Origin: Promethearchaeota archaeon
Lineage (GTDB): Archaea; Asgardarchaeota; Lokiarchaeia; Sigyniarchaeales; SOKP01
Assembly: GCA_019058245.1 (NCBI GenBank)
Contig: JAHPZJ010000014.1
Coordinates: forward strand, 115,185-132,582
Reading direction: 5' to 3'
DNA length: 17,398 nt
In this document: positions 753 to 17,398 of the stretch, piece after piece
Layout: each line of letters starts with the position of its first letter
How positions within the stretch are numbered: the first letter of the stretch is position 1
Translations under genes and position numbers: made by a program
The notes under the pieces: generated by a model
The model's database searches: none
What the model was told of the DNA's origin: nothing
Seen by the model: only the letters and a program-made list of their open reading frames with translations

Positions 753-1958
753 ATGGTAGTCTATTTTGCGTTTTTATTTCATATCTATCAACCGCCTGTA
801 CAAATTCCCTCAGTCATCAACCAAATCGTGAATGAATCCTATCGACCAATTATTGACGCAATGATGGAACACCCTGACGCGAAGATTACTTTAAATATTA
901 ACGGAACGTTAACGGAGCAATTACATGATTTTGGATATGATGACTTAATTGGATTGATGACTACCCTTGCCTCACGGGGGCAAATCGAATTTACGGGATC
1001 CGCAAAATTTCATCCTTTGCTTCCCCTTATTCCTGAACCTGAAATTAACCGTCAAATCGAATTAAATAATAAAACGAATCAATATTTTTTTGGGAAATTG
1101 TATAAACCACGGGGGTTTTTTCCCCCAGAAATGGCGGTCTCAGAAGAAGTGTTTAAAACTGTGAAAAAGGCGGGTTTTGACTGGATGATCATGAGTGGAA
1201 TTGCCAATACATTGCCAGAATTTCCCACTGACAATATTTCAATCCACCCAAATGGGTTAAAAGTGCTATTTAGGGATGATTATATATCGATCGATTGTGC
1301 CTTCGATAAAATTAATAATGTAGAAACATTTGCCAATCGATTAAAATATAAGGGAACAAAAGAAAATGTGTATATTATCACCGCAATGGATGGTGAAACC
1401 TTCGGGCACCATGTAAAACACGCTATAAAAAATTTTCTGATACCTCTTTTTCAAGCCTTACCTCACAGAGATGATATAAAATTATGCAATGTCTCAGAAA
1501 TTGTAGATAGATTCCCCAAGGGATTCACTCAGGTTCCAAGGGATTCCAGCTGGTCGACCATGCCCTACGATATTGCCCATGATGTACCCTTTCCCCTCTG
1601 GTTCGACCCCCACAATGAGATCCACCGAGAACAGCATAAATTCTTTATGTATGCCCTCACTCTCATTCACTTATCAGCAAAATACCGGGATAGCATGAAT
1701 GATGAGAAGAAAAGGATATTTGATAACGCCAGAAATTTATTAGATCGTGGTATACATTCCTGTTCTCAATGGTGGGCATCAAAACGCCCCTGGTACAGTC
1801 CTGACATGATTCTCCGTGGGTTAAATGAAGTATTGATGGCGAGTGTCAATGCGAAACGGAGTATTCCTGATAATATCCCTGACATTAAAGATGCGATGGA
1901 GCTTATTATGGGAGATATGCTCAAAGCGCAAAATAAAATTGTACTGTCTTTAATGTAA
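753..1958 (+). CDS. Glycoside hydrolase family 57 protein (alpha-amylase/amylopullulanase-like)
   Basis: GH57 conserved regions: FHIYQP, GSAKFHPLLPLIP, GFFPPEMAVS (nucleophile Glu), AMDGETFGHH (acid/base Asp), SSW, HSCSQWW. Confidence 0.9.
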   Translation: MVVYFAFLFHIYQPPVQIPSVINQIVNESYRPIIDAMMEHPDAKITLNINGTLTEQLHDFGYDDLIGLMTTLASRGQIEFTGSAKFHPLLPLIPEPEINRQIELNNKTNQYFFGKLYKPRGFFPPEMAVSEEVFKTVKKAGFDWMIMSGIANTLPEFPTDNISIHPNGLKVLFRDDYISIDCAFDKINNVETFANRLKYKGTKENVYIITAMDGETFGHHVKHAIKNFLIPLFQALPHRDDIKLCNVSEIVDRFPKGFTQVPRDSSWSTMPYDIAHDVPFPLWFDPHNEIHREQHKFFMYALTLIHLSAKYRDSMNDEKKRIFDNARNLLDRGIHSCSQWWASKRPWYSPDMILRGLNEVLMASVNAKRSIPDNIPDIKDAMELIMGDMLKAQNKIVLSLM

Positions 1959-1980
1959 GATTTAGAATTAAATAATAAGT

Positions 1981-2328
1981 TCAATCATTCCTAGAACGAA
2001 TTGCATAAAACCATTGATTCCAAATATTTAATAATTTCACAAACGTTTCTCTGTAAATTGAATATTCCTTGAATTTACCTTTTTTATAACTATAGATTAA
2101 TTTATGTTGCTCCAAAATTCTAATGTGATGGGAGATGGAAGGCTGACTTCTATTCAACTTATTTTCAATATCAGAAAGTAAACATGGCTTTTTATTTAAA
2201 AGGTTTAAAATTATAAATCTGTCTTCATTCCCTATAATTTCCATACATTGTTGTAGGAATTTATATGCTGTATTATTCTTGAATTTTTTTTTAATGGTCT
2301 TAATTTTATTCTTTGTTAATTCATTCAT
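1981..2328 (-). CDS. ArsR/SmtB-family winged-helix transcriptional regulator
   Basis: GNEDRFIILNLL...LNRSQPSISHHIRILEQHKLI...KKGKFKEYSI fits the ArsR wHTH pattern; 115 aa. Confidence 0.88.
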   Translation of the reverse strand: MNELTKNKIKTIKKKFKNNTAYKFLQQCMEIIGNEDRFIILNLLNKKPCLLSDIENKLNRSQPSISHHIRILEQHKLIYSYKKGKFKEYSIYRETFVKLLNIWNQWFYAIRSRND

Positions 2329-2369
2329 GTTTTTCTTCTTATTCTTTCTTTTATAATATTTTTAAAAAG

Positions 2370-3194
2370 TTATGATGAGAGTTTTTTAATCCAATTCTCC
2401 CATAAATACACAAATTCCATTATTTTTGACATATTTAATGAGTAATAAATATATTTTCCATCTTTCCACCCTTTAATCAATCCGGTTCTCTCTAATTTCT
2501 TAATATGATGTGAAGAAGTAGATTGAGATTTCCCAATAGACATCTGTATCTCATCCAATTTTAATGGTTGAGATTTTAATAGTTCTAATATTAAAAATCT
2601 TTCAGGATTAGAGAAAGATTTCAACCAATCAATTAAATTGATTTTTGAATCGAAAACTTCAATCTCAAGCATAGGATCTATTTCTTCATTTTGATTTTCA
2701 AGATAAGTTGCGTTTTCTAAGTTACTAATAACCTGGGACGATAAAATAGCTTTATCTGGTTGAATTAGCTGTTTAATCTGTTCAAATTTCTCATTACCTT
2801 TCTTAAGTTTATTTTTCACTTGATGATTATACATCGCAAGTTCTATCGTAGGTAGAAGGTCATCTTCACTTGTGATAGGTTTTACTATGTATCCATAGGG
2901 TTCTGATAATTTCGCTCTATCTAAAGTTTTTTTATCTCCATATGCAGTGATAAATATTATAGGGATGTTATAGTCTCTGTTAATAATTTTCGCTGTTTCA
3001 ATTCCATCCATCGTACCAGCTAGAATTATATCCATCAATATTAAATCTAGATTTAAAATCTCTATTTTAGAAAGTGCTTCTTCTCCTGAAGGAACAATGG
3101 CAATTGGATTATAATTTAATTTTTTTAGAAGAACTGCTATCGCCTCAGCGGTTATTAATTCATCTTCAACAATCATAACGTTTAATTGCGCCAT
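2370..3194 (-). CDS. Response regulator, N-terminal receiver domain plus C-terminal ArsR-type HTH
   Basis: REC residues intact: IVEDE, LILMD55, FIT83AY, IVK105P. C-terminal SNPERFLILELL...SQSTSSHHIKKLERTGLI...KDGKYIYYSL is an ArsR wHTH. Confidence 0.9.
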   Translation of the reverse strand: MAQLNVMIVEDELITAEAIAVLLKKLNYNPIAIVPSGEEALSKIEILNLDLILMDIILAGTMDGIETAKIINRDYNIPIIFITAYGDKKTLDRAKLSEPYGYIVKPITSEDDLLPTIELAMYNHQVKNKLKKGNEKFEQIKQLIQPDKAILSSQVISNLENATYLENQNEEIDPMLEIEVFDSKINLIDWLKSFSNPERFLILELLKSQPLKLDEIQMSIGKSQSTSSHHIKKLERTGLIKGWKDGKYIYYSLNMSKIMEFVYLWENWIKKLSS

Positions 3195-3223
3195 TCTACT
3201 ATATCATAAAATAGTTTTTAAAA

Positions 3224-5134
3224 TTACCAGGTAATTACTACATGAGTCCCATTATTTTTTTTAATAGAAATCTTCCCATCCATTTGTTTGGTTATAGTGG
3301 ATATAAGTTTCAAACCTAATGTATCTGATGTTTTAAAATCTACATCATTGGGAAAACCAATTCCGTTATCATATACCTCTAATAATATTCTATTGTTTAT
3401 GGTTTTCTTTAGGGTTACATCAATTTTTCCATTATAATTTTTAGGAAATGCATGTTTTAATGAGTTAGATACAAGTTCATTTATAATTAAACCACAAGAC
3501 ATAGCTTTGTCTAGACTAAGATCAACATTTTCAATATTCAACTCTAGTTTAATCTGCTTGGAATTTGCTAAATAAGCTTTAAATAGATTATTGACAAGGT
3601 TTTTTATATAATTAGAAAGATGAATATTATTCAAGTTTTCAGAGTTATATAATGTTTGATGTATTAACGCCATAACTTTAATACGATTTTGGAAATCCTT
3701 AAAAATATGAAGAATTCTATCATCTTTAACATATTGTTCTTGTAGTAATATTAAGCTTGAAATTATTTGCAAATTATTTTTTACTCTATGATGAATTTCT
3801 TTTAGAAGTATTTCTTTTTCCGCTAGCGAGGATTCTAAGAGAAATTCATTCTTTTTCTGCTCAGATATATCAATTATATTTATATGTAAAGCGGTAGTAC
3901 CTTGAAATTGAATCGTTTTAAAATATTGCCGTATATATAAATAACTCTCATCTTTCTTCTTCATTCGTATTTCGGATTGAAATGAGGATATTTCATTTTT
4001 TATAATTTTATTATAATTTTCAATAGTCATTTGTAAATCTTCAGGATGAATATGTTGGGTTATTTTGTTTAAATTCCAGGATAATAATTTATTTATTGAA
4101 AATCCTAAAATGTTAGATATACCCCTATTTGCAAATACTATCCGTCCATTAGCAATTATAAGTGTGCCTAATAAGGATTGTTCTGTAAGCATTCGATATT
4201 TTTCTTCACTTTTTCTTAACTCTTTTTCAGCAGAATCACGAACAATAACACTTGCAAGAACATTGGCTATAGATTGTAAAAAATTAATATCGTCTTTTGA
4301 AAATATTCGATGTTTACTTGTATGAGCTCCTAATATCCCAAAAGGACTGTTTTTTCCTTGTATAATTACACTCATTCCACTAATAACATCATGATCAGCA
4401 AGAAGTTTAGGGGCGAAGAATCTGGTTTCAGTTTTTAAATTTTCTACAATTACTGGAGTAGTTGTTAATAATGTAAAACCTGCTTGTGAATTCTTATTAT
4501 TTTCAACAGTTGCTTTTCCAACCAACCCCTCATGCCAACCAACTCCTGCTCGTAACTTCAAAAATTTCTTATCAGGAAGAATTTCAAGTACCTTTGTAAA
4601 CTCAACATCCAATATTTTTGCAAGCAATAATGTTGCTCGTTTAAATGAATTATCAATATTTTTCTCTGTAATAGTTTCCAAGCCAAATTGCGCAATCAAA
4701 GCTTGTCTATGGATATGGTTTTCAATAAATTGCTCAGTTTTTCTGGATTTCGTTAAATCTTCGGAAACACAGAGTATTCCGATAATTTTGTGTTCTTTAT
4801 TTGAAATTGGTGCTTGATTTGATGAAAGTTGAATATAGATTCCATTCTTTTTTTTAAAACGATATTCAATATCTTTTACCACTCTTCCCTCCATTACTTC
4901 TTTAATTCCTTTAGCAAAAATCACTTGATCATCAGGATGAATTAATTCAAAAACTTCTAATGAATTAAGGATTTCTTCTTTATTATATCCTAAAATTTCA
5001 ATAAATGAATTATTAACTTCAATAAAATTCAAGTTTATATCTAATTTATAAACCATACACTTTGAAATATTAAGCAGTGTCTGAAATATCTCTTCTGGTA
5101 AACATTGAGAACAATTAACATCCTTTTTGTTCAT
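3224..5134 (-). CDS. Cytoplasmic sensor histidine kinase, PAS-GAF-PAS-HisKA_2-HATPase
   Basis: Two PAS domains (LIHPDD, HIHPED, PAC-like RFKKKNG / RMKKKD), a GAF domain (LRAGVGW...SQAGFTL...FLQSIANVLA), HisKA_2 H-box LKEIHHRVKNNLQ, N-box NELVSNSLKHAF, G-boxes DNGIG and LGLKLI. No TM segment. Confidence 0.93.
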   Translation of the reverse strand: MNKKDVNCSQCLPEEIFQTLLNISKCMVYKLDINLNFIEVNNSFIEILGYNKEEILNSLEVFELIHPDDQVIFAKGIKEVMEGRVVKDIEYRFKKKNGIYIQLSSNQAPISNKEHKIIGILCVSEDLTKSRKTEQFIENHIHRQALIAQFGLETITEKNIDNSFKRATLLLAKILDVEFTKVLEILPDKKFLKLRAGVGWHEGLVGKATVENNKNSQAGFTLLTTTPVIVENLKTETRFFAPKLLADHDVISGMSVIIQGKNSPFGILGAHTSKHRIFSKDDINFLQSIANVLASVIVRDSAEKELRKSEEKYRMLTEQSLLGTLIIANGRIVFANRGISNILGFSINKLLSWNLNKITQHIHPEDLQMTIENYNKIIKNEISSFQSEIRMKKKDESYLYIRQYFKTIQFQGTTALHINIIDISEQKKNEFLLESSLAEKEILLKEIHHRVKNNLQIISSLILLQEQYVKDDRILHIFKDFQNRIKVMALIHQTLYNSENLNNIHLSNYIKNLVNNLFKAYLANSKQIKLELNIENVDLSLDKAMSCGLIINELVSNSLKHAFPKNYNGKIDVTLKKTINNRILLEVYDNGIGFPNDVDFKTSDTLGLKLISTITKQMDGKISIKKNNGTHVVITW

Positions 5135-5358
5135 AATATTTGATTTGAAATTTTATTTAATTTTAATAATCTAAGTGTTTTAATATATTTTCGTTAAAAA
5201 ATCTCAAGATATAAGTTCTTTCTATACTTAAATATAACTTCTAATAATATTATATGGAATAATAAAAATAAGGTTTATGAATATAAATCGAAATGATTTA
5301 ATATTAATCTTTATTTGAGAATCTAAAAAATTAAATGAAGACTTATTTTTTAATCAAA

Positions 5359-5397
5359 CGAAGGATTTTTATATAAATAATGAATTATTTTATTCAT
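5359..5397 (+). promoter_or_regulatory. Putative archaeal BRE/TATA promoter of the redox operon, followed by an inverted repeat
   Basis: cgaagga-tttttatataaa (TATA-like at 5368-5377), followed by ATGAAT-N6-ATTCAT at 5380-5397, about 75 nt before the ATG at 5472. The region is very AT-rich, so a chance match is possible. Confidence 0.4.
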
Positions 5398-5471
5398 ATA
5401 AAAAACTTTGATTCTTTATTCATTGTTTTTTATTTCAAATATTTTAAATTTAAAAATATAGGAGAAATAAA

Positions 5472-5957
5472 ATGGTAAAACTAACAAGTGAAATGAAAGA
5501 TGGTTTAAGAGTCCCCGGAAAAGGGGGCAGCTTGGTGTATTTGGCAACATCATCCGTCGATGGTAAACCAAATATTGCTGCTATGCGTTACGTGGATTCT
5601 TATAAAGATGATAAGATCTTAATTTCAGATATGTTTTTGTTGAAAACTAAAACAAACCTTAAAGAGAATCCCGAATGCATTATAGCAATATGCCATCCCA
5701 TGGATTCTGGAAGAGATTGGGTTTTTAAAGGAAAAGCTATTGATATTGAATATGGGTTTCCTCCAGATTTTGATTGGTATGGGATCAAAGCTAAAGAAAT
5801 TTTAGATGGTTGGGGTGATTGGCATCATAAAGAACCTCCAGATGAAGTTCCTCCTGATGTAGTATACTCTAAACCAGCTCAGCGTGGAGTTGTAGTATTA
5901 CATGTAGAAAAAATTTATTCAATAGAAAAAAGTAAAGTAGGAGAAAAAATACAATAG
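5472..5957 (+). CDS. Pyridoxamine 5'-phosphate oxidase-like (split-barrel, FMN-binding) protein
   Basis: YLATSSVDGKPN...ISDMFLLKTKTNLKENP...VFKGKA pattern; SD-like aggaga at 5460-5465. Confidence 0.8.
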   Translation: MVKLTSEMKDGLRVPGKGGSLVYLATSSVDGKPNIAAMRYVDSYKDDKILISDMFLLKTKTNLKENPECIIAICHPMDSGRDWVFKGKAIDIEYGFPPDFDWYGIKAKEILDGWGDWHHKEPPDEVPPDVVYSKPAQRGVVVLHVEKIYSIEKSKVGEKIQ

Positions 5958-5969
5958 GAGGAGAAAAAA

Positions 5970-6386
5970 ATGGTATTAAAACTAACTGAAAGAATGAAAG
6001 CTTGGATTAAAACTGGTTGTCATTTAAATGTGGCAACAAAAAATGGAATCCCTTTCCTCACTGTATCAAGAAACGTAAAATCTGTTTCGGACGATGAAAT
6101 TGTCTTTGCTTTATCTCAAGATGAATATTTTGTAATTAAGTCTGCTTTTTCCGAAAATCCGTGGGTTGCTATTGGAGTGTCTAAAGCAGGAGGTATCCGG
6201 GCATGTTATCAATTCAAAGGTAAAGGAACAGTTGATAAAGAAGGAGGTATTTATAACTTAAAAGTAAATCTCTCAGAAGTTTACTGTACTAAACCAGGTT
6301 GCTATGCTGGACAAAGACTTGATACTAAACCCGCTCAAGAATGTGAAGAATGGGAACATGGTCTTTGGACCGATTTACCAAAATAA
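5970..6386 (+). CDS. Second PNPOx-like split-barrel protein (paralogue of the upstream gene)
   Basis: LNVATKNGIP...ENPWVAI...YQFKGKG...EVYCTKPGCYAGQRL; strong SD aggaggag immediately upstream. Confidence 0.75.
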   Translation: MVLKLTERMKAWIKTGCHLNVATKNGIPFLTVSRNVKSVSDDEIVFALSQDEYFVIKSAFSENPWVAIGVSKAGGIRACYQFKGKGTVDKEGGIYNLKVNLSEVYCTKPGCYAGQRLDTKPAQECEEWEHGLWTDLPK

Positions 6387-6476
6387 AATATTTTTTTTTG
6401 AATTTCAAATGTAATAAAATTTGAATTTTATTGGATTAGAGAATTTGCAGTAAATATTGGATGTATGGTGAAATAA

Positions 6477-6785
6477 TTGGTAGTTGAAAAAGATATTGAA
6501 GAGAAAATTATTGGTAAGAAGAAACCAAAGAAGCTTCCTAAAAAAATGCCTTGGTTTATGCCTTTCATGTGTGATGGATGTGGTGATTGTGTTAAAGTTT
6601 GCCCTCAAGGTGGAATCAAATTATTAGGTCTTGAAAGAAAAGTTCCATCTGCATGGCTAATATATCCTGATTACTGCATTGGATGTGCGAAATGTGCAGA
6701 AGCTTGTCAAAGTTCAGCGGTTCAAATGACATCATATGTAGAAAAAGCTATTGAAAGATATAAGACTAAAAAACCCTTCCAATAA
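6477..6785 (+). CDS. 2[4Fe-4S] ferredoxin-like protein (TTG start)
   Basis: CDGCGDCVKVCP and CIGCAKCAEAC motifs; ggtga SD-like element upstream of the TTG. Confidence 0.88.
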   Translation: MVVEKDIEEKIIGKKKPKKLPKKMPWFMPFMCDGCGDCVKVCPQGGIKLLGLERKVPSAWLIYPDYCIGCAKCAEACQSSAVQMTSYVEKAIERYKTKKPFQ

Positions 6786-6832
6786 AGTTTAAAAAAAAAT
6801 GAATTAAAACTAAAAAAAAGAGGAAATTTGAA

Positions 6833-7903
6833 ATGGTTATTTTTGATCTAAGAAGATGTGATTTTTCAAAATGCAAAGGTGAATGTTTAGCAAATTGTCT
6901 TTTTGTCGATTATGACGAGAAAAAGGCAAAAGAAGACATTGCTAAATTAATTCGCCAAGAACCTGCAGATATACTAGCAAAATGTGTTACCTGTTATGCC
7001 TGTAATGAGTTTTGTCCAACTGGGGCAAACCCTTGGGAGTTAATTAATGCTATGCAGCAAAAAACTGGACTATATTTGTACCCTGACAAAGCTAAAAAAA
7101 CAGCAAGAGGATGGGCAACAAAAGAGGACCGTATTATTAAAGGTGACCCAGATAAACCGGCAATTTCTTTAGGAGGTTTTATGGATGTACTTCCTTGGGA
7201 TAAAGTCTTTAGAGGAAAATTATTTGAAGATTTGACTATGATTATGGGAGGATCATATTGTTGCAGAATGGGAGCAACTCATATGGGAGAAAGAGACCCT
7301 CCGTTTAAATATCTTCCTACCTTAGTAAAAAATTTAGCTGAAACAGGTCAGAAAGAAATAATTTTTTACCATGATGCATGTTATAGCCTATTAACTTCTG
7401 AAGCTTTAGCTCAAATGATTGAAGTCCCTTTTAAGCCTGTACATTATATTGAATATATAAGAAATTGGCTTCGGGAACATACGGATGAGTTAACTCCCTT
7501 AAATATTAAAGTGGCTTATCAACGTCCCTGTACTTCTAGATATAATCCACATGGTGATATGGATGAAACTGTATATGATTGGATCGAAGAGATCTTTGAA
7601 TTACTTGGTGTAGAACTCGTAAAACGTAAATATGAAAAAGAAAATTCAATGTGTTGCAGTTCAGGAATATTTCCAACTCAAAGGGAAAGAGCAATGGATT
7701 ATGTTCATATGAATTTGCAAGATGCTAAAGATGCTGGAGCAGAAGCTTATATTTTCTTCTGTCCTATTTGTGCTGCTGTGATGAGACAACCCTCCAAAAA
7801 AGAATTTGGAATGGAACCATATCATGTGATAATGCTAGTACAAAAAGCTTTAGGAGAAGATTTGCCAGTAGGTGGAGCAGCTATAGGGATACCAGCCCAT
7901 TAA
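6833..7903 (+). CDS. Fe-S oxidoreductase with an N-terminal 4Fe-4S dicluster and two CCG-like domains (HdrD/GlpC-like)
   Basis: CDFSKCKGECLANC and CVTCYACNEFCP; cysteine-rich domains YCCRMG...HDACY and YQRPC...MCCSSG...CPIC. Confidence 0.82.
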   Translation: MVIFDLRRCDFSKCKGECLANCLFVDYDEKKAKEDIAKLIRQEPADILAKCVTCYACNEFCPTGANPWELINAMQQKTGLYLYPDKAKKTARGWATKEDRIIKGDPDKPAISLGGFMDVLPWDKVFRGKLFEDLTMIMGGSYCCRMGATHMGERDPPFKYLPTLVKNLAETGQKEIIFYHDACYSLLTSEALAQMIEVPFKPVHYIEYIRNWLREHTDELTPLNIKVAYQRPCTSRYNPHGDMDETVYDWIEEIFELLGVELVKRKYEKENSMCCSSGIFPTQRERAMDYVHMNLQDAKDAGAEAYIFFCPICAAVMRQPSKKEFGMEPYHVIMLVQKALGEDLPVGGAAIGIPAH

Positions 7904-7942
7904 ATTCTTTATTTTTTTCTTTAAATTAATAGGTGTTTAATT

Positions 7943-8692
7943 TTGAGAATTTTGATTAGTATCCGTTCCTTTGAAGAGTTGAAATCTGCTATTGATGGAG
8001 GAGCTGATATAATAGATTTAAAAAATCCCGATGAAGGATCACTAGGGGCACCATTTCCATGGTTAATTAAAAAAATTAGAAATTATAGCAATGATTTTAC
8101 TTTAAGTGTTGCTATTGGTGATATGCCCAATTTACCTGGAACTGCCTCTCTCGCTTCTTCTGGAGCAGCTTTATGTGGTGCAGATATAATTAAATTAGGG
8201 CTTTATGGACCTCGTAATTTTAAAGAAGCTGTAAAATTATTAAAAAGTGTACGGAAAGCAATAAAAGACATAAATCAGAATATTATTGTTGTAGGTGCCG
8301 GTTATGCAGATTTTACTTCTTTTAATGGTATAGATTCCTTAGATATCCCAACGATATGCAATCAAGCTGGAGCAGATATTGCTATGTTAGATACATATTC
8401 GAAAAATGGTCAAAAATTATTTGACTTTATAAATTCTGATAAATTACGAATTTTTATTGATAAAACTCATCAGAGTGGCTTATTAGCAGCTCTAGCTGGA
8501 TCACTCGGATTAAATGATATAATAAAAGTCAATGAATTAGGAGCAGATATTATTGGCTTTAGAGGTGCTGCTTGCAGTGAGTCTGATAGGAAGAATGGAG
8601 TAGTTGAACTTAATAGAGTAAGAAAAATTGTAAGGATATCACAGAATCAAAATACTTATAAGAGAGTTATAAGTTCTACTTCAATAAAATAA
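7943..8692 (+). CDS. mfnB: (5-formylfuran-3-yl)methyl phosphate synthase (4-HFC-P synthase, methanofuran biosynthesis; TTG start)
   Basis: Signature GGADIIDLKNPDEGSLGAPFPW (Schiff-base Lys27), SVAIGDMP..PGTASLA, IKLGLYG, MLDT..K.G, LAGSL, DIIGFRGAAC; TIM-barrel length (249 aa). Confidence 0.9.
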   Translation: MRILISIRSFEELKSAIDGGADIIDLKNPDEGSLGAPFPWLIKKIRNYSNDFTLSVAIGDMPNLPGTASLASSGAALCGADIIKLGLYGPRNFKEAVKLLKSVRKAIKDINQNIIVVGAGYADFTSFNGIDSLDIPTICNQAGADIAMLDTYSKNGQKLFDFINSDKLRIFIDKTHQSGLLAALAGSLGLNDIIKVNELGADIIGFRGAACSESDRKNGVVELNRVRKIVRISQNQNTYKRVISSTSIK

Positions 8693-8760
8693 AATTATTT
8701 TAAAAAAATAAGTTACTATATAAAAAGTTAATAAATTTAGAAAGTATCGGTTGTAAAAGT

Positions 8761-9015
8761 ATGAGTACTATTAAAATTAAACATTCTCCTGAAAAATGTT
8801 ATGCTTGTAAAACATGTGAATTAATATGTTCTTATCATCATACAAAAACGTTTCAACCATCAGTTTCAAGTATTTCTGTTGAGAGAGACCATATTAATGG
8901 GAATTGGTATTGGATATTAAAGGATAATTGTGATAAATGTCAGGGTGAAGAACAACCTTTATGTGTAAAATTTTGTTTTTATGATGCTATTACTGTTGAG
9001 GAGGGTGAAGATTAA
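8761..9015 (+). CDS. Small 4Fe-4S ferredoxin-like partner of the AOR
   Basis: CYACKTCELICS and CDKC...PLCVKFC; its stop lies 1 nt before the AOR start. Confidence 0.85.
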   Translation: MSTIKIKHSPEKCYACKTCELICSYHHTKTFQPSVSSISVERDHINGNWYWILKDNCDKCQGEEQPLCVKFCFYDAITVEEGED

Positions 9016-9016
9016 G

Positions 9017-10936
9017 GTGAGTAGATATGATATAAAGGGTAGTATTACTGGAAAAATACTTAGAGTAAATTTAAGTGATGAAAAAGTAAGAGTAGAAGAT
9101 AATATATATGCAGAGAGATGGATTGGAGGGAGAGCATTAAGTAGTTGGATTCTTCTAAATGAATTGGTTCCTAATTTAAAGTGGTCTGATCCAGATAACT
9201 ATCTTATTTTTGGTGCGGGTGCTCTTGTGGGAACGATTCTCCCAGCAGCATGCCGAATGAATATTGATACTCTAAATGTTTTTAATAATGGTAAAGGATC
9301 ATCGAATCTTGGTGGTCATTTTAGTCCTGAAATGAAATTTTCCGGTTTTGATCAGATAATTATCAGTGGGAAATCAGATAACCCCATTTATCTCTTAGTA
9401 AAGGATGGAAATGCAGAAATCCGTGATGCTACTCATTTATGGGGAAAAAATACATATGAGACAGAACAAATCCTTAAAACTGAATTAAACGATAATAAAA
9501 TCGAGATTGCCTCAATAGGACCAGCAGGAGAAAATTTAGTTCGTGGATCTGCAATCATAGCGGATTGTGGTCGGACAGCTGGAGGATCTGGTGTAGGTTG
9601 TGTTATGGGTGATAAAAAAATAAAAGCTATTGTAATTCGCGGTAGTAAGGAGATTAAAGTTGCTCACCCTGAGAAATTTATTGAAAGAGTATATGAGGCA
9701 TATCAAAAAATTATAAATCGTCCTACAGCTAAGCTGTTTAGAAGAAAAACACTTGGAGGATTAGTATATAATGATTCTGAGCAATTTGATGCATTGTGGG
9801 AGATGATGCACACCGTTAGAAATGCACAAGATGTGCATTGGTCTCGTGATAAAAGATCCAAGATAATGGGAAAGAATGGTGTAGGAAGATTTTTCAAAAA
9901 ACTTCAGGCGTGTTATGTTTGTCCAGTAGGATGTCAACCATATTCAGAAATTAATGAAGGAAAATATAAAGGAACTAAAGGACTTGGATATTGGATAAAT
10001 TCTGTTATGTGGTCAGGTAAAATGGATGTTGCTGATCCTGATGCCTCATTAAAATATCATATTCGTGCCAACCAGTTAGGTTTAGATGGAGATAATTCTT
10101 CTGTTGCGATGGCATGGGCGTTTGAGGCATATGAGAAAGGATTACTAACTAAAGAGGATACCGATGGTTTAGAATTAGTATGGGGAAATATTGATGCTAT
10201 GTTAGAATTACAAGAAAAGATCGCGTATCGCGACGGATTTGGAGAATATCTCGCAAACGGTGTTGTTGAAGCATCAAAAAAACTTGGAAAAGATTCTGAA
10301 AGGTTTGCTACTCACCAAAAATATCAAGATACTCTTGATCCTTATAGAATTGCTAAAGGTTGGTCTCTAGCATGTGCAACATCACCAGTAGCGGGACGTC
10401 ATATGAGAGGTAGTGTTAATTTACCTATTGTTTTTGGTCCTAAAGGAGTTAAATTCAATCCATATTCATATGAAGATCAACCCCCCATAGTATTCTGGGA
10501 ATTACGTTCAAAAGAAATAGAGGATATAATTGGTATTTGCGTCTATGTTGGAACTTGGTCTGGCGTCTATGCTCTTGAACCCTCTGATTATGTTGATTTA
10601 ACCAATTTAGCACTTGGAACTAATTTGAATGAAGAGGAATTCATGTTACTTGGACAGAAATCATATAATCTAGAAAAAGCTTTTAATACATTACATGTAG
10701 GGTTCACACGGAAGGACGATTTACCACATCGAAGATTTTTTGAAGATCCAATCCAATCTGGACCCCATAAAGGCGAGAAATTAGATATAAATAAATATAA
10801 TTCGATGTTGGATAAGTTTTATGAGCTTCATGGTTGGGACTTAAAAACTGGATGGCAAACTCGTGAAACGTTAGAAAAATTAGGATTGAAAGATATAGCT
10901 GAAAAATTAGCTAAAGCGGGACGATTAATTGAATAA
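9017..10936 (+). CDS. Tungsten/molybdenum aldehyde:ferredoxin oxidoreductase family protein (start revised to GTG 9017; 639 aa)
   Basis: GKILRVNLS, SSNLGGHFSPEMKFSGFD, SIGPAGENLV, G.G.VMG.K..KAI, CYVCPVGC, NQLGLD, DIIGIC, YELHGWD..TG. GTG 9017 follows SD-like gagggtga (9001-9008) and avoids overlap with the ferredoxin gene. Confidence 0.92.
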   Translation: MSRYDIKGSITGKILRVNLSDEKVRVEDNIYAERWIGGRALSSWILLNELVPNLKWSDPDNYLIFGAGALVGTILPAACRMNIDTLNVFNNGKGSSNLGGHFSPEMKFSGFDQIIISGKSDNPIYLLVKDGNAEIRDATHLWGKNTYETEQILKTELNDNKIEIASIGPAGENLVRGSAIIADCGRTAGGSGVGCVMGDKKIKAIVIRGSKEIKVAHPEKFIERVYEAYQKIINRPTAKLFRRKTLGGLVYNDSEQFDALWEMMHTVRNAQDVHWSRDKRSKIMGKNGVGRFFKKLQACYVCPVGCQPYSEINEGKYKGTKGLGYWINSVMWSGKMDVADPDASLKYHIRANQLGLDGDNSSVAMAWAFEAYEKGLLTKEDTDGLELVWGNIDAMLELQEKIAYRDGFGEYLANGVVEASKKLGKDSERFATHQKYQDTLDPYRIAKGWSLACATSPVAGRHMRGSVNLPIVFGPKGVKFNPYSYEDQPPIVFWELRSKEIEDIIGICVYVGTWSGVYALEPSDYVDLTNLALGTNLNEEEFMLLGQKSYNLEKAFNTLHVGFTRKDDLPHRRFFEDPIQSGPHKGEKLDINKYNSMLDKFYELHGWDLKTGWQTRETLEKLGLKDIAEKLAKAGRLIE

Positions 10937-10939
10937 TAA

Positions 10940-10956
10940 TTTTTTTCATTTTTTTT
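10940..10956 (+). terminator. Oligo-T tract, probable archaeal intrinsic terminator of the redox operon
   Basis: tttttttcatttttttt directly after the AOR stop, in the 36-nt gap between convergent genes. Confidence 0.45.
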
Positions 10957-10972
10957 CCAATCATATTAGTTT

Positions 10973-12667
10973 TTAGTTAGATGTCTTTATAACTTCTATT
11001 TTTAAAACTAATTTGAAAGTACTACCTTTCCCAGGTGTGCTTTTTACTGTTATATCCCCACCGAGTAGATTTGCTAACTTCTTAGAAAGATGAAGTCCTA
11101 AACCACTTCCCTCTTTATACTTCCCAGGTTCAAGAATTCGACTAAATGGTTTGAATAATTTATTTAAATCTTCTTTTTGTATTCCAGAACCAGTATCTTT
11201 AACTGAAATTACAAGCTGTTCTTTTTTTCCTTTAATTTTTATGGAAATCCTTCCACTGTCAGTGAATTTTATTGCATTTCCAATTAGATTTATTAGAATT
11301 TGATTTACCCTTTGCTTATCATTGTAAATTATAAGGTTTTCGGGAGCATCAATAAAAAGGTCAAGACCTTTTTTCTTCGCAGCAACGCTAAAGGTTTCTT
11401 TCAAATGTATTAACTCATCTACGAGATTAAAGTTATCTTTTCTTATGGGTAATTTACTTATTTCTATTTTAGTCATATCAATTACATCAGTTATTAAATC
11501 ATCTAAATAAGTTGCACTGTTGAGAATAATATTAAGTTGGTTTTCTTGTTCTTCATTTATCCTTCCAGTTCTTCCCTTCAATATTGTTCTAGTAAAACCT
11601 ATTATAGAGGTTAATGGAGTTTTTAACTCATGAGTTATACTTGCTAAAAAGCTAACTTGTTGTGGTCTCGTAAACATTGCTAAAAAATCGGCTTTATAGG
11701 CTTCATCCTCTTTTAATTTTTCTTCACTTACTGAGAGTATTTCAGAACGTATGTTTTTTATTATGAGATTCAGTAATATGGAAAAATATATGATTGATCC
11801 TATATATGCTCCAATAAAATATCCCCACATGTGTTTACCCCACAAATCTTTTTCAAATAGCTTTATTATATCTACTAATGTTATAGCTATGAGTAAGGTA
11901 ATAGTTAAAATAGCAAATAAGACCCAATAGGTTAAAGGACGAAAAACCATTTTAGGATTAATAATTACTGGAATTATAATGATACAACAACCTCCAATTA
12001 AAAAAAGTGGTCCCATGAATAAGGGGTAGGTATTGAGGGTTTTATGAACTCTCTCAGTTAGAATTAATGAAATCATGAATAAGATAAATCCAAAGAAAAG
12101 GAATGACGAAACAGCTTTAAACTCAAAACGAGACCATTTGGTATAACGAAATAATACAAACGGAACTAAAATTACTAATGATAGGATTAAAGGAAAATTA
12201 AATACAATTCTTGCCCATTTATAATCGAAAGGAAAACTTACTATTATTAGTATAATTATAATCATGAATATAATTGTAAGAATATATTTCGTGCGCTTTA
12301 CGATTATATCAAAAGCTAAAACAAAGAACATTCCTCCAATTCCAAGTGAGATGTAACTTAATCTGCCAAGAAATTCATAGTTATCTGAAACGAGATCATA
12401 ATCTCCGCAAAATGTTAATAAATAGTTACTAGAATTTCCTAGAGCTGGAGGGACTTGAAGAATTTGAAAAAAAGTGAAGAATAGGCTAAAAGCAAAGCCA
12501 AGGAGTAAACTTGCTAGTCCTAACATAATGATTCTTTCATTAAAGATTACTCTTTTTCTAGCTATATGTATAAAATATATACCACAAATTATTGCTATTG
12601 CTATAGCAATTCCCCATAAAAATCGTTCATAGGGATCCCAAATCATTACTCCATTATCGCATTCCAT
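10973..12667 (-). CDS. Polytopic membrane sensor histidine kinase (about 9 TM helices + HisKA + HATPase)
   Basis: About nine hydrophobic segments in residues ~16-303; H-box FLASITHELKTPLTSIIG, N-box QILINLIGNAIKFT, G1 DTGSGI, F-box LFKPF, G2 GSGLGL. Confidence 0.92.
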   Translation of the reverse strand: MECDNGVMIWDPYERFLWGIAIAIAIICGIYFIHIARKRVIFNERIIMLGLASLLLGFAFSLFFTFFQILQVPPALGNSSNYLLTFCGDYDLVSDNYEFLGRLSYISLGIGGMFFVLAFDIIVKRTKYILTIIFMIIIILIIVSFPFDYKWARIVFNFPLILSLVILVPFVLFRYTKWSRFEFKAVSSFLFFGFILFMISLILTERVHKTLNTYPLFMGPLFLIGGCCIIIIPVIINPKMVFRPLTYWVLFAILTITLLIAITLVDIIKLFEKDLWGKHMWGYFIGAYIGSIIYFSILLNLIIKNIRSEILSVSEEKLKEDEAYKADFLAMFTRPQQVSFLASITHELKTPLTSIIGFTRTILKGRTGRINEEQENQLNIILNSATYLDDLITDVIDMTKIEISKLPIRKDNFNLVDELIHLKETFSVAAKKKGLDLFIDAPENLIIYNDKQRVNQILINLIGNAIKFTDSGRISIKIKGKKEQLVISVKDTGSGIQKEDLNKLFKPFSRILEPGKYKEGSGLGLHLSKKLANLLGGDITVKSTPGKGSTFKLVLKIEVIKTSN

Positions 12668-12759
12668 ATTTTCATCTTCTCGTTGTAAGTTAATGTTTTA
12701 ATTAATAGCTTTCAACTTTTCAAATTAATATTACACTTAAATTTAAGAAAACATAAATA

Positions 12760-12788
12760 TTAATTACTTTATTGTCAAATATTTAAAT
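12760..12788 (+). promoter_or_regulatory. 29-nt element, copy 1 (contains a TATA-like TTTAAAT), upstream of the response regulator
   Basis: ttaattactttattgtcaaatatttaaat; 27/29 identical to 13708-13736; the TATA-like core ends about 30 nt before ATG 12818. Confidence 0.65.
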
Positions 12789-12817
12789 CTTATTTATTTA
12801 TTCATAAGAGAGTTAAA

Positions 12818-13711
12818 ATGAAACCCTTGATACTTGTGGTTGAGGATGATCCAAATATCTTAAAATATCTGAAAATAACTTTAGAATTTAATGAATGTAA
12901 AGTAATTACAGCCGAAAACGGAAAAATTAGTTTAAAAGTTCTTTCAGAGCTAAAAGAATCTCTTGATCTTATTATTAGTGATATTATGATGCCTGAGATG
13001 AATGGATACGACTTTTTTGATGCTGTTTCTAATGACTCCACCTATTATCAGGTTCCATTTATCTTTCTTTCCGCTCTGGATTCTCCAGAAGATATTCGAT
13101 TTGGAAAGATGCTTGGCGTGGATGACTATATCACTAAACCTATTGATGAAGAAGACTTTCTAGCAACCATTTTTGGTAAAATTAAACGTGGCAAAACAAT
13201 TAGCTTGATTAATGAAAAAATAAATGAGATTTATTCTTCCTATGGGATCTCAGATGTATTAGTTCCTAAGGAAAGGGAAGATTTAATTTTATTAATTGAA
13301 GTAAACTGGGATGATGTAGTAGGTCCAAAGTTAATAAAATATTATCCTAAAGATATTGAATTAGATGTATCGCTTAATAATATTAGTGATCAACTTTATG
13401 ATGGTGTTAAAGCAATGTATGGTCAAGATGCCATTTTAACTGGAGAAGGAATCTTAATTAATTTAAAAAACTTAAATGTTAGTGCATATGTCTTTTTTGA
13501 TTCATATGTTGATAAATCTTATAGAGGAGGAAGAAAAGATTACATGTTTTCGCTAATTGCATCCACTATAACATATTTTCAATCTCTAAAAATTAAACAA
13601 GTTTTTATAGAACTATCGTCTTTATATAAAAAACAGGAAAAATGGGATATAGAAAAGTTTTGGAACAAATTTTATGAGATCCTTTCAAAACCATCACTAA
13701 TATCTAGTTAA
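12818..13711 (+). CDS. Response regulator: receiver domain fused to a longin/uDENN-like C-terminal domain
   Basis: REC: VVEDD, IISD55IMMP, FLS85A, ITK107P. C-terminal domain IEVNWDDVVGPKLIKYYP...AYVFFDSYVDKSYRGGRKDYMFSLI resembles uDENN/longin signatures. The REC call is firm; the longin call is pattern-based. Confidence 0.85.
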   Translation: MKPLILVVEDDPNILKYLKITLEFNECKVITAENGKISLKVLSELKESLDLIISDIMMPEMNGYDFFDAVSNDSTYYQVPFIFLSALDSPEDIRFGKMLGVDDYITKPIDEEDFLATIFGKIKRGKTISLINEKINEIYSSYGISDVLVPKEREDLILLIEVNWDDVVGPKLIKYYPKDIELDVSLNNISDQLYDGVKAMYGQDAILTGEGILINLKNLNVSAYVFFDSYVDKSYRGGRKDYMFSLIASTITYFQSLKIKQVFIELSSLYKKQEKWDIEKFWNKFYEILSKPSLISS

Positions 13712-13736
13712 TTACTTTTCTGTCAAATATTTAAAT
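13708..13736 (+). promoter_or_regulatory. 29-nt element, copy 2, overlapping the regulator stop codon and upstream of the GTPase
   Basis: ttaattacttttctgtcaaatatttaaat; 27/29 identical to 12760-12788. Confidence 0.65.
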
Positions 13737-13814
13737 AACTTCAAAAATTCTTTCATTTCAAAGCATTGATTTTTTAAAACCTATTGTTATTTTAAACAAA
13801 GAGATGAATTATTA

Positions 13815-14366
13815 ATGATTAATAAAGAAAATGAAGAACAACCAATAAAACTTGTAATCATTGGAATGGAAAATGCTGGAAAAACCACGATATTGGACGT
13901 ACTCACGGGAAAAATTAATCAAGAAACTAATAAACCACCCAGTATGAATCCTACCAAAGGTGTTGATAGAAGTGTTGTGTTATTTTTTGAGAAAGAAACT
14001 AAGGTTTGGGATTTTGGTGGACAAGAATCTTTTCGCAATGAATATACGTCAAATCCAAAGAAATATTTTTACTCAATCTCGTTTTTTTATTATGTCGTAG
14101 ATATTCAGGATTATTACCGACTTATACAATCTGTAATGTACTTTAAAGGAATTTTTAATTTAATTAGAAAATACAGCCCAGAAGCAAAAATCATTTTCCT
14201 TTTTCATAAAATGGACCCTGATTATGATCCAGATGAGAGAAATCTAAAAGGAAAATTCTTAGAAAAGGTTGAGTTAGATTTAAAGTTAGAAAATATACCT
14301 TATACAATGTATGACACTACGATTTTTGATATTAAAACTATTAAAACTGCTTTTGGTCAAGAATAG
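13815..14366 (+). CDS. Small GTPase, Rag/Gtr-like (Arf-related) G domain
   Basis: G1 GMENAGKT, G2 PT47KG, G3 WDFGGQ70, G4 HKMD (His-type, as in Rag GTPases), G5-like TTIFD; 183 aa with no C-terminal roadblock domain. Confidence 0.9.
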   Translation: MINKENEEQPIKLVIIGMENAGKTTILDVLTGKINQETNKPPSMNPTKGVDRSVVLFFEKETKVWDFGGQESFRNEYTSNPKKYFYSISFFYYVVDIQDYYRLIQSVMYFKGIFNLIRKYSPEAKIIFLFHKMDPDYDPDERNLKGKFLEKVELDLKLENIPYTMYDTTIFDIKTIKTAFGQE

Positions 14367-14534
14367 TAAAGCAGATTTTAAAATTTTATATTTTTTATTA
14401 TGAATTTTTCCTGCATTTAAATATAAAAAAGATTTTAAATCGCATTTTTTTTGTTTTAACTAATTACACAGATCGAGTGAAACAAAAATTAAAAAGAAAT
14501 CTAAATCGATTAATTGCTAATAAAAAGTATTATT

Positions 14535-14639
14535 GCACAATGCAGCATTCCTGAAAATAACCCTGATCTTAAAGATGCCATGGAGCTTATTATGGGAGAT
14601 ATGTTAAAAGCACAAAATAAAATCATTTTATCTCTTTAA
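14535..14639 (+). pseudogene. Orphan copy of the GH57 gene 3' end
   Basis: Translates AQCSIPENNPDLKDAMELIMGDMLKAQNKIILSL* vs GH57 AKRSIPDNIPDIKDAMELIMGDMLKAQNKIVLSLM*. 14544-14636 vs 1860-1952 is 77/93 nt identical by hand count. An in-frame stop lies upstream at 14511-14513. Confidence 0.9.
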
Positions 14640-15108
14640 CGTGAAAATCAAAAAAGAAGAAATAATTTTTGAAAAACCTAGGACGAAATTATGAGAACTT
14701 TTAAAAACGATTGAAGATAAAGATGAAAATCATTCCGTATTTAAACTAAAATTTGATAAACTTTACGGATATAGAATTATTCACGATAAAATATGATATT
14801 CAATAACGCACTTAAAAAATATCGATTTAAAAAATGCCAAATTTTTGTTAGTCTCTTATAATTCTTTTATTAACTAATTAAAAGAAAAAGCTATTCAATT
14901 AAAAATCAATCTTAAAGAAACTTAGAGATTTTAAAAAAAGGTTTTTATTAATCATCTCATTTTTTAAATAATTTATGTTAGGTGCTTCAAATATATGAAA
15001 TTTTTTTCTCTTCAATAATAGGAGAATTATAATGTCATAATTAAAAAATATTATATATTAAAATACTTTTCTTTGCATAATATTAATTTACAATTTTGGC
15101 GAAATTAA

Positions 15109-17398
15109 ATGACAAAATTCATAAAAAGAAATTTAATAACTTTTTTTCTTGTGACCGTTCTTTTTGGAATAACTCTGATGAATTCTTTTTTCATCTTTAG
15201 AGCTGAAAATTTACCAAATCGAAATGAATACAGAGAGCAAATTAAAGTTTTACCTAAAAGTAGTGCACAGTCGATATCACCCACATTACTTGGCAAGTTT
15301 AGTGATATTTCTGATGAATCTCAAGATGTATATATTTCCGGTAATATTGCATATGTAGCTGATGGGAGTGATGGACTAAAAATTATTAATGTAAGTGATC
15401 CTGCCCATCCCGTATTGCTGGGCAGGTTTGGCGATTCTTACAATAACTCTTTGGGTATATATGTTTCTGGTAATGTCGCATATATAGCTGATTGGACTGA
15501 TGGACTGGAAATTATTGATGTAAGCGATCCTACTAATCCTACATTGCTGGGTAAGTACGGCGATTATTGCAATTATTCTAGCAGTGTATATGTTTCTGGT
15601 AATATTGCATATGTAGCTGATGGGATGGATGGACTGGAAATGATTGATATAAGCGATCCTGCTCACCCTGCATCGCTGGGCAAATATATAACTACTAATG
15701 ATTCTTTGGATGTATATATTTCCGGAACTATTGCATATGTAGCTATTTGGTTTTACGGGCTGGAAATTATTGATGTAAGTGACCCTATTCACCCCGCATT
15801 ACTGGGTAGTTATCACGATTCTTTGGATAATTCTAGTGGTGTATATATTTCCGATAATATTGCATATGTAGCTGATAGGGAGGATGGACTGGAAATAATT
15901 GATGTGAGTGACTCCGCTCACCCCACCTTGCTAAGTAAATATGGCGATTCTTACAATAATTCTCAGCACGTATATGTTTTTGGCAATGTAGCATATGTAG
16001 CTGATGGGGCTGATGGATTGGAAATTATTGATGTGAGCGATCCTGCTCACCCCGCATCACTGGGTAGTTATCACGATTCTTTGGATAGTTCTAATGGTGT
16101 AATTATTTCCGGTAATACTGTATATGTAACTGATGGGACTGATGGACTGGAAATTATTGATATCGGTTTAGTAAGTGGGCAATGGTTAACGCCATCATTA
16201 TTAGGTAAATATGGAGATTATGACAATTTATCTTACGATGTCTATGTTTTTGGTAATGTTGCATATGTAGCTGATGGGTGGAATGGACTGGAAATTATTA
16301 ATGTAAGTGACCCTTCTCATCCTGTGTTGTTGGGCAGGTATGGTGATTCTACCAATAACTCTTACAGTGTATATGTTTCCGATAATATTGCATATGTAGC
16401 TGATAAGGAGGATGGACTGGAAATTATTGATGTAAGCGATCCTATTCAACCAGCGTCGTTGGGCAAGTTTGGCGATTCTTACAATAATTCTGGAGATCTA
16501 TATGTTTCCGGTAATATTGCATATGTAGCTGATGGGAATGATGGACTGGAAATTATTGATGTGAGTGACCCCACTAACCCTACATTAGTGGGTAAGTATG
16601 GTGATTCTTCCAATAATTCTGTAGATGTATATATTTCCGGTACTATTGCATATGTAGCTGATGTGTGGGATGGACTGGAAATTATTGATGTAAGTGACCC
16701 TATTCACCCCACATTGCTGGGTAGGTATGGCGATTCTTACAATAATTCTGACAGTGTATATATTTCCGGTACTATCGCATATGTAGCTGGTGGGATTGAT
16801 GGATTGGAAATTATTGATGTAAGCGATCCTGCTAATCCCGCGTTGTTGGGCAGGTATGGCGATTATTGCAATCAATCTTATGACGTATATGTTTCCGGTA
16901 CTATCGCATATGTAGCTGATTGGATTGATGGATTGGAAATTATTGATGTAAGCGATCCTATTCACCCAGCGTCGTTGGGCAAGTTTGGCGATTCTTCCAA
17001 TTTTTCTTGCGGCGTATATGTTTCCGGTAATATCGCCTATGTAGCTGATCAGATTAATGGACTGGAAATAATTGATCCTGGGGTAGATAACGATGATGAT
17101 GATCTAACAAATGTTCAAGAGATGTATTTTTATTTTACAAATCTAAATAATCCAGACACGGATTATGATAATATGCCTGATGGTTGGGAACTATCTAATA
17201 GTTTAAATCCTCTTGTAGATGATGCGATGGATGATCCTGATTTTGATGAACTAAAAAATCTTTATGAATATTTAAGTGGGACAAAACCTCAAATTAATGA
17301 TACTGAATCTGATAATATGCCTGACGGTTGGGAAGTCTTTCATGGATTAGATCCATTATCAGATGATACCAATAGTGATCATGATAAAGATGGACTTT
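15109..17398 (+). CDS. Secreted/surface protein with 14 LVIVD repeats (two 7-bladed beta-propellers) followed by Asp-rich Ca-binding TSP3-like repeats; 3' end outside the window
   Basis: ATG 15109; MTKFIKRNLITFFLVTVLFGITLMNSFFIF (signal/TM); open to the window end. Repeats S-x-x-VYVSGNIAYVADxxDGLEIIDVSDPxxPxLLG, then DNDDDDLTN..E, DTDYDNMPDGWE, DPDFDELKN..E, DTESDNMPDGWE, DHDKDGL. Missing from the ORF track. Confidence 0.93.
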   Translation, partial: MTKFIKRNLITFFLVTVLFGITLMNSFFIFRAENLPNRNEYREQIKVLPKSSAQSISPTLLGKFSDISDESQDVYISGNIAYVADGSDGLKIINVSDPAHPVLLGRFGDSYNNSLGIYVSGNVAYIADWTDGLEIIDVSDPTNPTLLGKYGDYCNYSSSVYVSGNIAYVADGMDGLEMIDISDPAHPASLGKYITTNDSLDVYISGTIAYVAIWFYGLEIIDVSDPIHPALLGSYHDSLDNSSGVYISDNIAYVADREDGLEIIDVSDSAHPTLLSKYGDSYNNSQHVYVFGNVAYVADGADGLEIIDVSDPAHPASLGSYHDSLDSSNGVIISGNTVYVTDGTDGLEIIDIGLVSGQWLTPSLLGKYGDYDNLSYDVYVFGNVAYVADGWNGLEIINVSDPSHPVLLGRYGDSTNNSYSVYVSDNIAYVADKEDGLEIIDVSDPIQPASLGKFGDSYNNSGDLYVSGNIAYVADGNDGLEIIDVSDPTNPTLVGKYGDSSNNSVDVYISGTIAYVADVWDGLEIIDVSDPIHPTLLGRYGDSYNNSDSVYISGTIAYVAGGIDGLEIIDVSDPANPALLGRYGDYCNQSYDVYVSGTIAYVADWIDGLEIIDVSDPIHPASLGKFGDSSNFSCGVYVSGNIAYVADQINGLEIIDPGVDNDDDDLTNVQEMYFYFTNLNNPDTDYDNMPDGWELSNSLNPLVDDAMDDPDFDELKNLYEYLSGTKPQINDTESDNMPDGWEVFHGLDPLSDDTNSDHDKDGL
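15280..17076 (+). repeat. Tandem coding repeat array, ~129-nt (43-aa) unit, 14 copies
   Basis: The (g/a)tagct codons of the (V/I)A motif recur at 15355, 15484, 15613, 15739, 15868 and onward (129-nt period, one 126-nt unit). Confidence 0.92.

Follow-up and report, generated by a model that had tools for sequence, protein, structure and literature searches.

An apparently integrase-free, serially filled insertion hot spot at the 3′ end of a GH57 glycoside hydrolase gene in a Promethearchaeota archaeon

Campbell-type single-crossover insertion-duplication and homology-facilitated illegitimate recombination are laboratory and natural-transformation concepts, known mainly from engineered plasmids or from transformation assays in bacteria. 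For tycheposons, dedicated recombinases, either carried or required, are reportedly the rule and tRNA genes the main targets. A report on tycheposons and additive flexible genomic islands (bioRxiv 10.1101/2020.12.28.424599) provides a comparison system, and a study on tandem SGI1 arrays (PMC2297512) provides an example of stacked islands. In work on mobile elements and gene flow in Asgard archaea, integrated elements have been described with integrases and short att motifs, and gene-end scars or integrase-free hot spots are not described there (PMC11529989, PMC13247210). No earlier description of either was found in the literature searched. Here we analyzed the 3′ end of a GH57 glycoside hydrolase gene and the DNA inserted behind it in a 17,398-nt stretch, called the window, from a Promethearchaeota archaeon (class Lokiarchaeia; GenBank assembly GCA_019058245.1, here G000). 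The window covers positions 115185-132582 of contig C14 (JAHPZJ010000014.1) and reaches the contig end.

At the GH57 locus the gene is kept intact and a displaced copy of its end lies on the far side of the inserted DNA, as in integrase-borne islands at the 3′ ends of tRNA and tmRNA genes and in tandem SGI1 arrays. Tandem modules each with a repeat and empty sites in relatives are further common traits. The locus differs from such islands in that no integrase lies in or near the modules, recombinases are scarce in the genus, the repeats range from about 60 to about 550 nt, homology extends to both sides of a core sequence and some joins lack a duplication. Its cargo consists of ordinary regulatory and metabolic genes. 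With tycheposons and additive islands it shares hypervariability, a position between conserved genes, side-by-side cargo modules and partial copies of the target gene at the boundaries; in contrast to tycheposons, the target is protein-coding and no recombinase is evident. As in Campbell-type insertion, intact and truncated direct copies flank the insert, the truncated copy is joined to the old downstream sequence, diverged homology serves as anchor and no dedicated recombinase takes part. Unlike the bacterial assays, the GH57 events are deduced from natural scars in uncultured Asgard archaea and are serial at one locus.

The GH57 locus is a serially filled hot spot, apparently free of integrases, and its reading as a single island is wrong. 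The repeated GH57 end is a real insertion scar, and the locus records four or more acquisitions stacked at the end of this one gene. The cargo was probably, if far from certainly, gained in a series of homology-anchored (Campbell-type) insertions of DNA from related Lokiarchaeia that needed no integrase. The features that carry the repeat are as follows.

753 to 1958, + strand: GH57 glycoside hydrolase gene, intact, 401 amino acids (aa), conserved anchor of the hot spot (Pfam Glyco_hydro_57, E = 7e-41)
1842 to 1958, + strand: copy A, the last ~115 nt of GH57 with the stop codon (repeat search, blastn)
1896 to 1919, + strand: 24-nt perfect core in copy A, ATGGAGCTTATTATGGGAGATATG (sequence comparison)
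14509 to 14676, + strand: fragment B, a dead GH57 3′ end spanning about -130 to +35, counted from the last sense codon (orthologous to fragment f2 of genome G024 in its left part and in its left flank)
14580 to 14603, + strand: 24-nt perfect core in fragment B

The repeat search returned A and B as a direct repeat (family D2) of 98 nt with 84% identity, 1842-1939 versus 14526-14623, the copies lying 12684 nt apart. Using blastn, the match was stretched to 117 nt (1842-1956 versus 14526-14642); in a search of the whole 3.09-Mb genome it had E = 7e-24. The copies are 80-84% identical overall. A first-pass annotation of the window had noticed the repeat, and its values were all reproduced: between 1860-1952 and 14544-14636, 77 of 93 nt and 27 of 31 aa are identical, the 24-nt core is perfect, eight codons differ by synonymous changes only and four by non-synonymous ones. 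Copy B is located in the 740-nt gap that extends from a GTPase gene to an LVIVD gene. It lies within a 41-codon stop-to-stop frame (14514-14639) in GH57 register, has no plausible start, and its stop comes one codon ahead of the GH57 stop position.

GH57 orthologues within the genus share 83-95% aa identity. The proposal that both repeat ends evolved as functional coding sequence was borne out by codon analysis, which gave pS 0.56, pN 0.08 and pN/pS 0.14 for A versus B (p = 1.7e-4) and a similar pattern for A versus C, a third copy described below (pN/pS 0.13). Because the differences are mainly synonymous, copies A, B and C seem to have diverged inside functional genes, from different alleles, and not by decay of a local duplicate. 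The pS and pN/pS values are those expected if the two copies stem from different functional alleles, one of a donor and one of the resident, and later allelic replacement could also give rise to such a synonymous bias.

The core is common to A, B and a GH57 fragment in genome G041, and the identical 24-mer occurs in only one of 39 full-length orthologues. With three Met codons, it is the best-conserved stretch of the segment (82% versus 73% among orthologues). As proof of an att site the core was rejected, since a perfect run of 24 in an 83%-identical pair is not significant alone; it is compatible with a crossover or conversion tract. Neither tRNA genes nor Rfam families nor terminator-like sites were found at the junctions or in the copy B gap. 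The motif CCTAG(A/G)ACGAA, present ~45 nt past both stops, was considered as the remnant of an ArsR gene next to B and rejected: the best tblastn hit for such a remnant had E = 0.67, and blastn detected nothing outside the 117-nt repeat. Nor could one 3′ end be called native by its identity to orthologues, a comparison that the first-pass annotation had suggested. Relative to full-length ends A reaches 82-88% and B 84-89%, so that neither is clearly closer, and the gene is a fine mosaic.

To place the repeat in its genomic context we compared the surroundings of GH57 across the genus, using ~39 kb around the orthologue for 10 genomes, ~21-39 kb for another 7 and those contigs of G041 that were available. 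The source genome comprises 3.09 Mb in 31 contigs with 29% GC and is 76% complete; its order-mates include P. syntrophicum MK-D1 and Harpocratesius. Contig C1 evidently continues the window, because the last 113 nt of C14 (window 17286-17398) overlap C1:1-113 with 94.7% identity and, in every relative, synteny is seen between all genes of C1 and the DNA downstream of GH57. The break falls inside TSP3 repeats of the LVIVD gene. The ancestral order consists of genes for 195-aa and 214-aa proteins and aroD, followed by GH57 (forward), shikimate kinase (SK, reverse), flavin reductase (reverse) and further aro genes (forward). The aroD-GH57-SK arrangement is kept in ~20 genomes of the genus with 0 to >20 kb of cargo, the modules being present in varying combinations.

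The site is empty in seven genomes (G006, a complete chromosome, G015, G016, G014, G010, G009 and G020), in which 300-363 nt separate the GH57 stop from SK. The gap measures 1-3 kb in G003, G007, G017, G011 and G012, where a 183-aa open reading frame (ORF), an MFS transporter or an Rce1-like protease has been added, about 10 kb in G005, G008 and G024, and >20 kb in G000. On the other side, between aroD and GH57, most genomes have a spacer of ~85 nt; this spacer is expanded in G012, G005, G008, G024, G018 and G000 (~7 kb). Since both spacers are expanded in various genomes, both flanks of GH57 are insertion hot spots. The locus thus resembles an additive flexible island, a fixed spot between core genes with gene content that differs among relatives.

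Insertion at the GH57 3′ end, as proposed in the first-pass annotation, is supported, and empty-site relatives exist. The same proposal had expected GH57 to be followed directly in empty-site genomes by sequence like that from 14640 onward; what follows there is the GH57-SK spacer. In G000 this spacer sits on C1 after a fourth GH57 copy, D, and the sequence from 14640, which belongs to the LVIVD insertion, is absent from G024. As a separate observation, the 3′ end duplicated on contig C28 of G003 (L039/L040, merged coordinates 20295-20411) is that of shikimate kinase (aa 138-176), not of GH57. It accompanies the small insertion of the 183-aa ORF, which is also present in G007 and G017.

Three further GH57 pieces had not been seen in the first-pass annotation. 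Copy C lies at C1:1179-1359 on the adjoining contig, and the decayed copy D at C1:4832-5212. A 5′ fragment, C14:112688-112747 (L001:7612-7747), is found ~3.2 kb upstream of the intact gene and consists of the first 20 codons, MVIYFASLFHIYQPPVQIPS, together with ~75 nt of upstream sequence. Its orthologue in G024 is longer, keeping aa 1-215 compared with the first 20 aa in G000.

Alignment of all fragments with their flanks allowed classes to be set by the right flank. In the D-type (G000 D, G024 f3, G018 fS) the right side is the ancestral spacer with SK; these fragments are old and decayed and have a common left flank. In the C-type (G000 C, G041, G018, G024 f2) the right side is the 3′ end of the AOR_c1 gene. 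Both types, including G024 f2, pair an intact gene with a truncated direct copy that is contiguous with former downstream DNA, as a Campbell-type product would. The three fragments of G024 (f1, f2, f3) are GH57 3′ ends, each with the stop codon and about 35-57 nt past it, and the class of G024 f1 and G008 f1 begins exactly at the core. Overall, fragment left ends vary (about -59, -135, -150, -360 and -550), with homology present on either side of the core. A left boundary shared by B, C and D at about -150 was sought; it is clear for C only, B and D being too decayed.

On its left, fragment G024 f2 is flanked like B and on its right like C, which points to one ancestral fragment that was split and duplicated in G000 by the LVIVD insertion. 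The left part of B, 93% identical to G024 f2 over the last 103 nt, represents resident sequence. The left part of C is intact, G018-like GH57 sequence with 91% identity, although the background between G000 and G018 is about 72-75% in two control regions. On G018 contig C35 (L025/L026) and G041 contig C2 (L143) the intact GH57 gene is inverted. On one side of it lie a 5′ fragment or the upstream genes, on the other a long 3′ fragment that covers aa 219-401 in G018 and aa 282-401 in G041; in both relatives the 3′ fragment has the same 81-aa ORF beside it.

The cargo of the window and the remaining features are listed below.

3 to 413, + strand: end of an LRR protein gene, part of the ~7-kb aroD-GH57 insertion that includes the GH57 5′ fragment
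1981 to 10936: module 1, encoding ArsR, a REC-ArsR regulator, a PAS/GAF histidine kinase, a PNPOx-like protein, an unknown ORF, Fer4, CCG, MfnB, Fer4 and AOR proteins (Pfam)
10973 to 14366: module 2, encoding a membrane histidine kinase (- strand), a REC protein (+ strand) and a Gtr1/RagA-like GTPase (+ strand) (Pfam)
14677 to 15108: non-coding right flank of B, absent from G024, which came with the LVIVD gene
15109 to 17398, + strand: LVIVD/TSP3 repeat surface-protein gene, a further insertion, continuing at C1:62-886 and followed by fragment C (Pfam LVIVD)

Together with C1, the order in G000 is GH57 (A), module 1, module 2, B, LVIVD/TSP3, C, AOR/FeADH, D, spacer, SK. That in G024 is GH57, SIR2-TPR, f1, histidine kinase/REC protein/GTPase, f2, AOR/FeADH, f3, spacer, SK, so that every cargo module of G024 is bounded by a GH57 fragment. 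In G005 module 1 is the sole cargo between GH57 and the ancestral spacer with shikimate kinase, at 67-93% aa identity. Module 2 is kept as a unit in G024 and G008 (66-97% aa identity), both of which lack module 1; in G024 it is bracketed by f1 and f2, and SIR2-TPR occupies the place of module 1. Because the two modules occur apart in relatives, the A-B block is a composite of at least two separately acquired modules. In G041 module 1 adjoins what is left of the kinase gene; module 2 is deleted there except for 54 codons of the kinase 3′ end.

The LVIVD gene, whose TSP3 repeats and membrane anchor are encoded on C1, is absent between the GTPase gene and AOR_c1 in G024, and was inserted later, dividing an older fragment into B and C. 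A donor arrangement of a GH57 end next to LVIVD was sought in 54 genomes of the genus. The only match was 262 nt of the right flank of B (14661-14922), 74% identical to a stretch of G069 and suggestive only; it adjoins a homologue of the ORF that comes after GH57 in G018. Base composition was tried as a sign of foreign origin and discarded, the block with 24-38% GC not being distinct from the genome (29%).

Across genomes the hot-spot cargo, as assigned by Pfam, includes sensor kinases, SIR2_2-TPR, Hypoth_Ymh, FG-GAP, LRR, MFS, M28 and AOR/Fe-ADH proteins. A 723-aa SIR2_2 and TPR protein with a 115-aa partner is encoded downstream of GH57 in G024 (e.g. L024:1753-3921) and G008 and upstream of it in G005, and a Hypoth_Ymh gene is present in the hot spot of G018. 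Owing to these genes the cargo includes defence-like functions.

The GH57 sequence itself is mosaic. Copy A is 94% identical to its G041 orthologue in the flanks and 85% identical between -135 and -25, where G041 shows 92% identity to B (Fisher p = 0.014). Moreover, the nearest neighbour of GH57 switches every 100-200 nt. Both patterns look like signs of ongoing homologous exchange. G041 was considered as the closest relative and rejected: its GH57 protein is 95% identical but the gene only 83%, and control regions range from 78 to 94%. Events cannot be polarised by reference to any one closest genome. The swings between 78% and 94% identity of G000 and G041 occur in neighbouring segments (control regions L175, L176). 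They suggest genome-wide mosaicism among species of the genus or chimeric metagenome-assembled genomes (MAGs).

In the proposed mechanism the donor would be DNA of a related Lokiarchaeon in which part or all of a GH57 homologue lies beside cargo genes. A homologous single crossover with the resident GH57 would follow, either as Campbell-type integration of a circularised fragment or by one-sided homology combined with an illegitimate join. The product would be an intact, chimeric GH57 gene, the cargo, and a redundant GH57 end still joined to the earlier downstream DNA. Erosion of the redundant copy by deletion would explain the differing fragment lengths, as with the 5′ fragment, of which more survives in G024 than in G000. 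Repeated events would stack modules, and no site-specific recombinase would be required. Old fragments could be reused as targets, as when the LVIVD gene entered one of them and generated B and C.

Similar loci exist elsewhere in G000. A scan of 2238 ORFs yielded ~13 terminal fragments on the same contig and strand as the respective gene, 10 of the 13 with outward geometry (p = 0.046). At C6:129575-135780 (L146) a dihydrolipoamide dehydrogenase-like Pyr_redox gene (C6:129575-131056) is followed by an ORF of 1335 aa on the opposite strand and then by its own 3′ fragment. The 1335-aa ORF has no Pfam match and contains an HNH-endonuclease-like region (PHROG 2255, residues 905-1183). Gene and fragment are 80.6% identical over 217 nt and share a perfect tract of 65 nt in which orthologues show 6-16 differences; in G009 the site is empty. 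At C26:3457-9109 (L147) the intact UvrA gene is directly preceded by an apparently inserted pyruvate formate-lyase-like gene, upstream of which there is a copy of 37 aa from the UvrA N-terminus with 86% identity, an arrangement that mirrors the GH57 3′ scars.

An unlikely alternative is that the locus has only an internal history, in which local GH57 duplications were followed by deletions and inversions, so that the fragments are eroded paralogues and allelic recombination mimics divergence. The larger pieces retained in relatives (aa 1-215 in G024, 219-401 in G018, 282-401 in G041), the inverted full-length copies of G018 and G041 and the fine mosaicism of GH57, a sign of frequent allelic exchange, would fit such a history. 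Against it, the cargo at the site is wholly different between species and seven genomes are empty, which indicates that DNA was gained. Furthermore, the A/B values for pS and pN/pS are unexpected for decay of a local duplicate, and the left part of C shows high identity to the G018 copy against a lower genomic background. An intact tandem second orthologue, which the first-pass annotation had named as a finding that would speak against insertion, was present in no relative; only fragments occur there, and divergence is mostly synonymous, so that the copies do not behave like a decayed tandem paralogue.

Quite unlikely, too, is site-specific integration by a trans-acting recombinase, whose gene would lie elsewhere, in an unassembled portion of the genome or on a helper element, with the conserved core of the GH57 3′ end as att site and the modules as integrase-less satellites. 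It would agree with the direct repeats and the perfect core common to A, B and the G041 fragment, with the f1 class of G024 and G008 that starts exactly there, with tandem stacking of modules as at tRNA att sites, and with the incompleteness of G000. Indeed, direct att-like repeats (A/B) and empty sites in seven relatives are what an integrative element would show. No recombinase was found in or beside the element, though. Searches with Pfam and PHROGs detected no integrase, transposase or viral family in any module ORF, as the first-pass annotation had stated for integrases and transposases, and ~10 modules as well as the vicinity of all three loci were free of integrases. The one tyrosine recombinase of G000 (PF00589) is a XerA equivalog encoded on contig C24. 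When 54 genomes of the genus were searched, the GH57 contigs examined gave no PF00589 or PF00239 match; in most of the 54 XerA is the only tyrosine recombinase, and serine recombinases occur in 5 of 54. Independent insertions also do not use one crossover site, given the left ends between -59 and -550, clean joins past the stop codon, and homology that extends leftward of the core although an att site would not require it. Finally, matching architecture is seen at the unrelated Pyr_redox and UvrA genes, whose sequences are unrelated as well.

According to the first-pass annotation, both two-component systems, the redox operon and the GTPase arrived as one unit at GH57; this would be a ~12.6-kb island integrated once, with A and B as attL and attR. 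A and B are in fact the nearest repeat pair and bracket the block, but this account is very improbable: each module occurs without the other in relatives, module 2 has a left fragment of its own (f1) in G024, and orthology of B to G024 f2 makes B older than the arrival of module 1 at this position. An assembly or binning artefact, which might be suspected as the window ends at a contig break in a repeat-rich gene, can practically be dismissed, because the copies are not identical (80-84%), orthologous fragments with matching flanks occur in the independent assemblies G024, G041 and G018, and G024, an independent MAG, has its fragment in the corresponding position behind the GTPase gene, with a matching left flank and 93% identity across the final 103 nt.

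Several points weigh against serial homology-anchored insertion. The mechanism is inferred from scars in genome sequences. Anchors of only 100-200 nt with 80-85% identity are short for homologous recombination to be efficient. Some insertions left no duplication: clean joins at +4 to +17 past the stop are found in G005, G011 and G008, and modules 1 and 2 are separated by a 37-nt gap with no fragment between them. The inverted intact GH57 genes of G018 and G041 are not the product of a simple Campbell event and would need an extra inversion or another mode of insertion. A recombinase could sit on the part missing from the 76% complete G000. All genomes used are MAGs, and chimeric binning or assembly could feed some of the mosaic pattern. 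The terminal-fragment scan is crude and its geometry test weak.

Asgard genomes are large and gene-rich and contain much horizontally acquired DNA, the entry route of which is poorly known, and this genus is almost without integrases. As relatives preserve intermediate stages as well as the empty site, the route of gene gain could be put to the test with metagenomic reads and complete genomes that are already available. The functional reading of the window changes as well: the two two-component systems, the redox operon and the GTPase were not transferred together as a single unit, and their adjacency is therefore no evidence of shared function; the histidine kinase, response regulator and GTPase of module 2 do travel as a unit. 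More tentatively, Lokiarchaeia, in which integrases are very scarce, may routinely gain multi-gene cargo by integrase-free, homology-anchored loop-in that leaves scars throughout the genome. The scars would be portable attachment sites, letting a flanked module loop out by homologous recombination and re-enter at the orthologous gene end of another species. If true, such loop-in and loop-out would constitute recombinase-independent island mobility in the closest archaeal relatives of eukaryotes.

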